Below are positions 1-2,037 of a DNA stretch of 2,037 nt, piece after piece. This DNA comes from Escherichia coli (GTDB lineage: Bacteria; Pseudomonadota; Gammaproteobacteria; Enterobacterales; Enterobacteriaceae): assembly GCF_003334405.1 (NCBI RefSeq), contig NZ_QOWM01000040.1; one strand, 5' to 3'. The translations under genes and the position numbers were made by a program. A model generated the notes under the pieces. The model saw only the letters and a list, made by a program, of their open reading frames with translations, was not told the DNA's origin and did not search any database. The stretch's first letter is position 1, and every line of letters begins with the position of its first letter.

Positions 1-846
1 AACCAGATGGACCCGGTGTACACGCCGGCGCGAAAAATCCACCTGTACCACTGCGACCATCGCGGCCTGCCGCTGGCGCTCATCAGCACGGAAGGGGCAA
101 CAGCGTGGTGCGCAGAATATGATGAATGGGGCAACCTGCTGAATGAAGAGAACCCGCATCAGCTGCAGCAGCTTATCCGGCTGCCGGGGCAGCAGTATGA
201 TGAGGAGTCCGGCCTGTATTACAACCGCCACCGCTATTATGACCCGCTGCAGGGGCGATATATCACTCAGGATCCGATTGGACTGAAGGGGGGATGGAAC
301 CTGTATGGATATCAATTGAATCCGATATCAGACATCGACCCCCTGGGTTTATCTATGTGGGAGGATGCAAAATCGGGGGCATGTACTAATGGTCTTTGCG
401 GCACACTATCCGCTATGATAGGTCCAGATAAATTTGATTCTATAGATAGCACCGCATATGGCGCCTTAAATAAAATAAATAGCCAATCTATTTGCGAAGA
501 TAAAGAGTTCGCTGGTTTAATATGTAAGGATAATAGTGGCAGATATTTCTCAACAGCACCTAACCGAGGAGAAAGAAAAGGATCATATCCATTCAATAGC
601 CCTTGCCCTAATGGTACTGAGAAAGTATCAGCTTATCATACTCATGGTGCAGATAGTCATGGAGAATATTGGGACGAAATATTTTCAGGTAAAGATGAGA
701 AAATAGTTAAAAGTAAAGATAACAATATCAAGTCATTTTATTTAGGTACGCCCAGTGGTAATTTTAAAGCAATAGATAACCACGGGAAGGAAATAACAAA
801 CAGAAAAGGATTACCTAATGTCTGCAGAGTTCATGGTAATATGTAA
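1..846 (+). CDS. rhsB: Rhs family protein, C-terminal portion (5'-partial): end of conserved Rhs core plus variable C-terminal toxin domain (CT) of unassigned fold
   Basis: Open frame from nt 1 (the gene begins upstream) to TAA at 844-846. The translation carries the Rhs core-end signature [42 protein letters not shown]. Composition drops right after the second DPxGL, from about 58% GC to about 33% GC (hand counts of sampled 60-nt stretches), as expected for a conserved core fused to a variable toxin tip. The symbol is a recollection that the 127-aa downstream ORF followed by an H-repeat matches the K-12 RhsB element; it may instead be an orthologous Rhs locus. Confidence 0.85.
271..351 (+). 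other. Rhs core/CT demarcation motif: DPIGL (271-285), 17-residue spacer, DPLGL (337-351); probable autoproteolysis and core/tip boundary
   Basis: Read directly from the translation: D89-P-I-G-L93 and D111-P-L-G-L115. In Rhs and YD-repeat proteins the DPxGL-(~18 aa)-DPxGL motif marks the end of the conserved core and lies next to the site where the C-terminal tip is released. Confidence 0.8.
806..810 (+). promoter_or_regulatory. Shine-Dalgarno (AAGGA) for the immunity gene, 7-nt spacer to ATG 818
   Basis: The sequence aaaAGGAttacctaATG is seen directly. It lies inside the 3' end of the rhs coding sequence, consistent with translational coupling. Confidence 0.55.
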
Positions 847-1201
847 AAAAATATTGTTTAGGAACTGTGTCATTGTATCTTTGTTTGTTTTTACATACAA
901 CACATGGGCGCAGTGTAATAATAATATTAAAATAATGCGCAAGTATGAAAGTGAAGGTAAATATACCGTTAGAAATTTGGTTAAAAATAAAGCTATAGCA
1001 TTGGAATTAGCTGAGATATATGTTAAGAATCGTTATGGGCAGGATGCCGCAGAAGAAGAAAAACCATACGAAATCACTGAGTTAACAACAAGTTGGGTTG
1101 TTGAAGGTACCATTCACTCAGACCAAATTGCTGGTGGGGTTTTTATTATAGAAATAGGCAAAAATGATGGGAGAATTCTGAATTTTGGCCACGGAAAATA
1201 A
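818..1201 (+). CDS. yhhH: Putative cognate Rhs immunity protein (127 aa) encoded immediately downstream of and overlapping the rhs CT
   Basis: ORF 818-1201 with an SD 7 nt upstream. It overlaps the rhs stop by 29 nt in a different frame and is AT-rich like the toxin tip, the typical arrangement of Rhs CT/immunity pairs. Length and position match my recollection of K-12 yhhH (127 aa, between rhsB and yhhI). The N-terminus [33 protein letters not shown] is hydrophobic and signal-peptide-like. In-frame alternative starts exist at 833 and 935, but neither has a comparable SD. Confidence 0.75.
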
Positions 1202-1292
1202 GTATGTAAGGATAATCAAACATCGTGTGCGCTGATGGCAGAGTAGGTGGAGGACTCCAGACAGTCAAACGATAGAAAAAGATAGCCTTTAT

Positions 1293-1297
1293 GGAGG
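1293..1297 (+). promoter_or_regulatory. Shine-Dalgarno (GGAGG) for the yibA-like ORF, 8-nt spacer to ATG 1306
   Basis: The sequence atGGAGGttcctgcaATG is seen directly. This supports ATG 1306 (MSNTYQKRK...) as the start rather than the upstream ATG 1291 used in the ORF track. Confidence 0.6.
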
Positions 1298-1305
1298 TTC
1301 CTGCA

Positions 1306-1652
1306 ATGTCAAATACATACCAGAAAAGAAAGGCAAGTAAAGAGTATGGTTTATATAATAAATGTAAGAAACTAAATGATGATGAATTATTTCGCTTACT
1401 TGATGATCGCAATTCCTTGAAAAGGATTTCATCTGCCAGAGTATTACAGTTAAGAGGGGGGCAAGACGCTGTTAGATTGGCAATTGAATTCTGCACTGAC
1501 AAAAATTATATCCGTAGAGATATCGGAGCATTTATACTCGGGCAAATATAAATTTGCAAAAAATGCGAAGATAATGTTTTTAATATTTTGAACAATATGG
1601 CATTGAATGATAAGAGTGCTTGCGTTCGAGCTACGGCAATCGAGTCAACGGC
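1306..1652 (+). pseudogene. Orphan HEAT-repeat immunity gene remnant (YibA-like), interrupted by an in-frame TAA at 1549-1551 and 3'-truncated by the H-repeat insertion
   Basis: Translation from 1306 is MSNTYQKRKASKEYGLYNKCKKLNDDELFRLLDDRNSLKRISSARVLQLRGGQDAVRLAIEFCTDKNYIRRDIGAFILGQI, then a stop, then the same frame continues ICKKCEDNVFNILNNMALNDKSACVRATAIESTA... The second half contains a canonical HEAT/PBS-lyase repeat signature (D-x-x-x-C-V-R-A-T-A-I-E). The N-terminus matches what I recall of E. coli YibA, the HEAT-repeat protein encoded just downstream of rhsA. About 115 codons are present, against roughly 280 for a full-length YibA-type protein. The frame runs on into non-homologous sequence until TAA 1687-1689. 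Confidence 0.7.
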
Positions 1653-1770
1653 CAGGGAAAGATCATCAAAAGTTCACTTTTTGCACTAAATAATTCGCAT
1701 TTTATGTTTAAAAATTGAGATATTCCTTATTACCTGAAGCTGTTTTTTATTGCTTATACATGATCAAATA

Positions 1771-1796: not shown

Positions 1797-2037
1797 ATGG
1801 AACTTAAAAAATTGATGGAACATATTTCTATTATCCCCGATTACAGACAAACCTGGAAAGTGGAACATAAATTATCGGATATTCTACTGTTGACTATTTG
1901 TGCCGTTATTTCTGGTGCAGAAGGTTGGGAAGATATAGAGGATTTTGGGGAAACACATCTCGATTTTTTGAAGCAATATGGTGATTTTGAAAATGGTATT
2001 CCTGTTCACGATACCATTGCCAGAGTTGTATCCTGTA
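1797..2037 (+). CDS. yhhI: ISAs1-family (H-repeat-associated) transposase, N-terminal 80 codons (3'-partial, runs off the window)
   Basis: AAGGAG SD at 1785-1790, ATG at 1797, and an open frame to the window end. The translation is [80 protein letters not shown], the conserved N-terminal region of H-repeat-associated proteins (YhhI, YdcC and YbfD in E. coli). The symbol is chosen from the RhsB-like context, since the paralogues are near-identical at this end. Confidence 0.85.

Follow-up and report, generated by a model that had tools for sequence, protein, structure and literature searches.

The 3′ end of the RhsB element of Escherichia coli raises the question of how an H-repeat (H-rpt) came to abut a truncated yibA-like reading frame there, and whether the join records the insertion of a mobile element into a gene. 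The window, that is, the whole stretch of 2037 bp that was analysed, corresponds to the 3′ part of the RhsB element and holds, in this order, the rhsB tip, yhhH, a relic of yibA and H-rptB/ISEc1. Many E. coli chromosomes, including that of strain D53-1, contain it with 100% identity, and there these parts are annotated as rhsB, yhhH, a HEAT repeat pseudogene and yhhI, the "ISAs1-like element ISEc1 family transposase". A K-12-like genome (L001) differs from the window only at positions 461 and 1039, and its coordinates convert to window positions by subtraction of 2401. The gene order in L001 is rhsB, yhhH, the HEAT pseudogene and yhhI, followed by yhhJ on the opposite strand.

The window opens with the 3′ end of rhsB (1-846, + strand, from PGAP annotation of the identical records; the open reading frame spans 7-846). 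The GC-rich core of rhsB ends with a DPLGL motif (at about 331-345, from the translation). The C-terminal toxin tip that comes next is AT-rich, the GC content dropping from 0.60 to about 0.33. The small open reading frame after the RhsB tip is yhhH (818-1201, + strand, found in both the ORF list and the annotation), which is presumed to be the cognate immunity gene of the tip. It begins 29 nt ahead of the rhsB stop codon (818-846), and thus the genes for the toxin tip and its presumed immunity protein overlap. A search of the NCBIfam HMMs gave no match for YhhH.

Downstream of yhhH lies a 399-bp relic of an RhsA-type toxin-tip/immunity module (1254-1652, + strand), recognized by homology to the RhsA locus. 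It consists of the last 32 nt of the rhsA coding sequence (1254-1285, + strand), a spacer of 20 nt (1286-1305) and the first 347 nt of yibA (115 2/3 codons; 1306-1652, + strand), and is 97.2% identical to the RhsA locus of K-12 (L002, 6233-6631). Window positions 1-1652 are also colinear, at 99.7% identity, with an uninterrupted rhsB-yhhH-yibA arrangement in another genome (L011), and this match too ends at 1652. Homology to the RhsA locus starts 52 nt upstream of the yibA start, taking in the end of rhsA; from this comparison, the segment 1254-1305 is best read as a footprint, left where a module of RhsB tip and yhhH displaced an RhsA-type tip upstream of yibA. YibA is a HEAT-repeat protein and neutralises the C-terminal toxin of RhsA (Vlazny and Hill, as cited in PMC3150448).

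The frame that opens at ATG 1306 follows K-12 YibA (itself matching NF007244 with 466 bits) as far as ...SACVRATAIESTA, in agreement with the initial annotation, made from the letters of the window alone, in which the YibA-like translation ended at about 1652. Beyond that point YibA goes on with QRCKKNPIY, whereas the window encodes RERSSKVHFLH. Over the 115 aligned codons there are eight nucleotide differences from K-12 yibA and two from the yibA of L011. One codon is an in-frame stop seen in the translation (1549-1551, + strand): Lys82, AAA in three intact yibA genes, has become TAA, a second inactivating lesion independent of the truncation. Homology to YibA is therefore clear, but a full-length coding sequence of 280 aa is absent, as the gene is cut at codon 116 and already interrupted at codon 82. 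PGAP labels the relic a "HEAT repeat domain-containing protein" with an internal stop and a missing C-terminus, and the K-12 gene list has the pseudogene yrhC between yhhH and yhhI. The relic is yrhC, a dead orphan immunity gene without function.

The join itself lies in the segment 1640-1700, which reads ...ATCGAGTCAACGGC followed directly by CAGGGAAAGATCATCAAAAGTTCACTTTTTGCACTAA (with a longer right side, ...ATCGAGTCAACGGC followed by CAGGGAAAGATCATC...), the C of CAGGG being position 1653. Nucleotide homology to yibA stops at 1652, which is nt 347 of the 843 nt of the gene, and homology to H-rpt begins at the equivalent of 1653 in the K-12 copies ydcC, ybfQ and ybfL as well as in six copies from other genomes. 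The base that precedes the start of H-rpt varies from copy to copy (a, g, c or t), so that the terminus is unambiguous. Among 5426 complete genomes, the matches to H-rpts at loci other than RhsB start at window positions 1651-1654 (query positions 52-55). The CAGGG pentamer has no statistical significance in the window, where three occurrences stand against 2.3 expected and 81 of 200 shuffled sequences do as well. As judged from these comparisons, the evidence for the boundary is the coincidence of the homology breakpoints and not the CAGGG motif. The left tip of ISEc1 is placed at 1653, exact to the base. The initial annotation had put the insertion point at about 1653, and this position holds: none of the aligned H-rpt copies starts elsewhere than at its equivalent, and YibA homology continuing past 1660 was not found. 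Across the join, translation gives a hybrid Ala codon (GC from yibA and C from the element), an IS-encoded tail of 11 codons, RERSSKVHFLH, and TAA at 1687-1689 (1651-1689 in all, + strand); the 12 unrelated codons counted previously are thus these 11 plus the stop, or 12 with the hybrid codon. This read-through of the yibA frame into the element is accidental. No promoter-like site emerged from a sigma-70 scan of 1500-1850.

To the right of the join, the window contains the left 385 bp of H-rptB/ISEc1 (1653-2037, + strand). The full element measures 1291 bp (L001, 4054 to 5344) and ends at the window equivalent of 2943, about 900 bp outside the window. Over its full length (1-1291) it is 95.5-99.4% identical to nine other copies (in L003-L010), and the segment 1600-2037 is 100% identical to K-12-type records. 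The terminal inverted repeats of ISAs1-family elements begin with 5′-CAGGG (ISfinder). Here the left terminal inverted repeat is CAGGGAAAGATCATCAAA (1653-1670, + strand), which is an imperfect match, at 14 of 18 positions, to the reverse complement of the right end, CAGGGCAAGATTACGAAA, and the nine other copies have the same termini. The only open reading frame in the 1291 bp is an intact yhhI, whose 5′ part occupies 1797-2037 (+ strand). It encodes a DDE transposase of 378 aa that matches the NCBIfam profile NF033564, "ISAs1 family transposase", with 412.4 bits against a cut-off of 70 and over the whole profile (1-314 of 314), together with the Pfam profiles PF13808 (1.9e-33) and PF01609 (1.7e-29). 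With its transposase, its CAGGG termini, a size in the range of about 1.2-1.5 kb and, in a sister copy, a target duplication in the range of 8-10 bp, the element is ISEc1, historically H-rptB, a member of the ISAs1 family with yhhI as its transposase, and it closes RhsB on the right. The earlier association of the CAGGG start with an ISAs1-family terminus is borne out by the profile match, the inverted repeats and the start of the other copies, and the element does lie in the same orientation as the yibA relic because yhhI is on the + strand. Upstream of yhhI is a 7-bp hairpin, CTCCTTA-N6-TAAGGAG (1771-1790, + strand; -8 kcal/mol, z = -2.46). Its 3′ arm coincides with the yhhI Shine-Dalgarno sequence, 7 nt upstream of the ATG. 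This putative structure could hide the ribosome-binding site when transcription enters from outside the element.

How widespread the join is, and what occupies the same place elsewhere, can be seen among the 5426 complete genomes. The left junction, yibA′ to H-rpt, is present in 1806 of them and the right junction, H-rpt to the yhhJ side, in 1836. Although 2676 genomes cover at least 80% of the window, this figure does not count the junction, because 81% of the window is already accounted for by positions 1-1652; genomes with the junction itself number 1806. An uninterrupted yhhH-yibA arrangement, sought with the converse chimeric query, occurs in 1184 genomes; both of those inspected have it between yibF and yibH, the chromosomal site of RhsA. 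A rare long form, found in 23 genomes, has the K-12-type right junction at the nikR-yhhJ site but a different left junction, Imm57′ to H-rpt. Its array begins with an rhs gene that has an rhsJ-type tip; yibG, an orphan rhs fragment and a decayed Imm57 gene (Imm57′) follow, and an H-rpt with an internal deletion comes last, its nt 1-531 being joined to 1245-1291 (L014, 6470-7047; L015, about 9150-9730). In the long-form genomes inspected, ETEC4067 and CFSAN018748, the RhsB tip, yhhH and yibA are absent from the nikR-yhhJ site. The long-form locus differs from K-12 by about 5%, in the yhhJ flank as well. A full array as it would have stood before any deletion was not found at the nikR-yhhJ site in the genomes inspected. 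In strain Res13-Lact-EA06-22 (L013, 31262-31848), which has no Rhs element there, a hicA/hicB toxin-antitoxin pair lies between nikR and yhhJ in place of the Rhs element, and the nikR-yhhJ interval is therefore a variable hot spot.

H-rpt copies at other loci give a picture of how the element behaves. In E. coli strain AH25 (L006, 1522-3585; NZ_CP055256.1), a full 1291-bp ISEc1 lies inside another H-rpt, after nt 79 of the latter, and 10 bp of the target, ATTCCTCATT, are perfectly duplicated on its two sides. Read from its sequence, this nested copy is direct evidence of past H-rpt transposition; according to a genome paper (PMC3032704), H-rpt has not been observed to be active. The outer AH25 copy begins with T and not C (TAGGG). 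Direct tandem or nested H-rpts are common at the 3′ ends of Rhs elements, as in ybfQ/ybfL/ybfD, in a frameshifted ISAs1 pseudogene adjacent to ydcC and in L006. At RhsC of K-12 (L003, 9303-11926), three partial or full H-rpts stand head to tail, joined exactly at their termini. Two types of left end are seen in the first 25 nt (L003, L009 and L014), CAGGGAAAGATCATCA(A/G)AAGTTCAC and CAGGGAAAGAT(C/T)ACGTAACGCT(A/G)CT, of which the second, starting with CAGGGAAAGAT, makes the better inverted repeat (16 of 18, counted by hand). Compared with the resident copy in the long form, H-rptB has eight differences within its first 25 nt. Every H-rpt fetched at random from five other genomes (L005, L007-L010) follows Rhs or polymorphic-toxin and immunity modules and shares their orientation. 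Two of them, in L007 and L008, have a common right flank (the nrfB side) and unlike left flanks, which suggests, at the level of sequence, rearrangements that ended at the left terminus of H-rpt.

The right end of H-rptB bears on the origin of the join. The initial annotation had described an insertion within yibA and had pointed to the right end as the place to look for an inverted terminal repeat and a target-site duplication. The inverted repeat is there, and the duplication is not. The right flank, AATACAGGACTGAG..., runs through REP-like sequence to the yhhJ stop, 154 nt from H-rpt, and has no homology to yibA, whose 3′ 496 nt are absent from the RhsB locus. The two flanks, ...GTCAACGGC on the left and AATACAGGAC... 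on the right, are not duplicates of each other, and a search for a repeat of GTCAACGGC at the right end found none. In the RhsB-less genome L013, with which the right boundary of the RhsB island was sought, homology to K-12 begins only at the yhhJ stop, beyond these 154 nt. Thus, the left junction stands as described, but the simple insertion that it implied does not. If H-rpt had simply inserted into an intact yibA paralogue, the distal part of yibA and a target duplication would lie beyond the right end. The left junction does look just like that of an IS in an open reading frame, and ISEc1 does produce 10-bp duplications, as the nested copy in L006 illustrates. However, the window copy has neither a duplication nor the rest of the interrupted gene beyond its far end, and a chimeric query, in which the right end of H-rpt was followed by yibA starting at nt 338, matched 0 of the 5426 complete genomes. 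This explanation is scarcely credible, and for the RhsB locus the right-end sequence rules it out. It is hardly more plausible that the join was not made by the IS at all, with H-rpt a passive part of the Rhs composite and an illegitimate recombination that happened to end near its repeat. In favour of such an accident, target duplications are absent from most copies examined: around the window copy and eight others, a duplication was seen only at the nested copy in L006. An accident of this kind would nevertheless have had to strike exactly the first base of the inverted repeat, and the same terminus is shared by copies with many different flanks. The intact transposase frame and the perfect duplication around the nested copy, which shows real transposition, also speak against it.

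The absence of a target duplication, the yhhJ-side right flank, the lack of any H-rpt-yibA right junction in the collection and the existence of a rare form with the same right junction together point to a deletion that ended at the IS terminus as the probable origin of the K-12-type junction. The nikR-yhhJ site would once have held an RhsA-like array closed on its right by an H-rpt, with the order core, RhsB tip, yhhH, yibA, an rhsJ′ orphan, yibG, an orphan and Imm57′. A second H-rpt would then have inserted into yibA in the same orientation, with an expected flanking duplication of about GAGTCAACGGC. Homologous recombination between the two direct H-rpts would have deleted about 3 kb. The one H-rpt that remained would keep its former right flank, have yibA nt 347 as its new neighbour on the left and lack a target duplication. 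In the rare form, the RhsB tip, yhhH and yibA would instead have been lost by recombination of the main core with the rhsJ′ core fragment. The same end product, with its new left flank, old right flank and missing duplication, could have come from a one-step adjacent deletion, in which the resident H-rpt transposed intramolecularly and its left end attacked yibA nt 347, with a loss of about 3 kb. Such a route has the merit that no unobserved second copy is required, and we regard it as possible, if rather unlikely. The two-copy route is slightly preferred, since tandem or nested H-rpts, which allow ordinary homologous recombination, are frequent and since H-rptB has a left end of a type unlike that of the resident long-form copy (8 of 25 nt). 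The latter difference is weak evidence, because the long form is about 5% diverged even in its yhhJ flank. To our knowledge, the transposition chemistry of ISAs1 elements is not established, which counts against the one-step route. The intermediate of the two-copy route, two H-rpts with the 3′ part of yibA between them, was not found in the 5426 genomes, and so we infer the order of events. As a whole, the reading in which 1653 is the outermost base of the ISEc1 left repeat, with a dead yibA fragment alongside, is in our judgement very probable, with two-copy recombination as the slightly favoured source of the deletion.

A further-reaching proposal is that H-rpt/ISEc1 is active now or was until recently, that it prefers to land in the same orientation at the 3′ ends of Rhs toxin/immunity arrays and that it trims them. 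It is suggested by the nested copy with its 10-bp duplication and by the alternative left junctions that go with one right junction, and we consider it doubtful. If it were true, H-rpt would drive the loss of orphan modules instead of being an inert component.

Both the junction and the element are already known, as they are annotated in K-12 as yrhC and yhhI/ISEc1 (H-rptB). The Rhs literature of the early 1990s, with the original H-rpt papers (Zhao et al. 1993), reportedly covers the boundaries of H-rptB, its IS-like character and the yibA-related fragment of RhsB. H-rpt is unmentioned in Jackson et al. (2009). Only the 10-bp duplication as evidence of transposition and the alternative left junctions with one right junction are mildly new. 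About one in three complete E. coli genomes has this locus, and the boundary in it between yrhC and ISEc1 is now fixed to the base, which is mainly of value for annotation. The junction is no simple insertion but probably a deletion scar. As a by-product, H-repeats appear to have truly transposed and to have reshaped the tails of Rhs toxin/immunity arrays, a minor point for Rhs turnover.

Compared with known systems, the relic resembles the yibA of the RhsA element, sharing 97-99.7% identity with intact genes over its 347 nt and the 52 nt ahead of them, and differs in that it ends at codon 116 of 280 and has TAA at codon 82. Like IS-bounded deletions, the junction has one conserved and one new flank, breaks exactly at the end of the IS and is without a target duplication; the difference is that the event at the RhsB locus is reconstructed from comparisons alone. 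The hairpin at 1771-1790 resembles those by which other insertion sequences are protected from read-through. Finally, H-rptB/ISEc1 of the K-12 RhsB element is the same element, with the same length of 1291 bp and the same CAGGG inverted repeats, and nothing substantial differs between the two.
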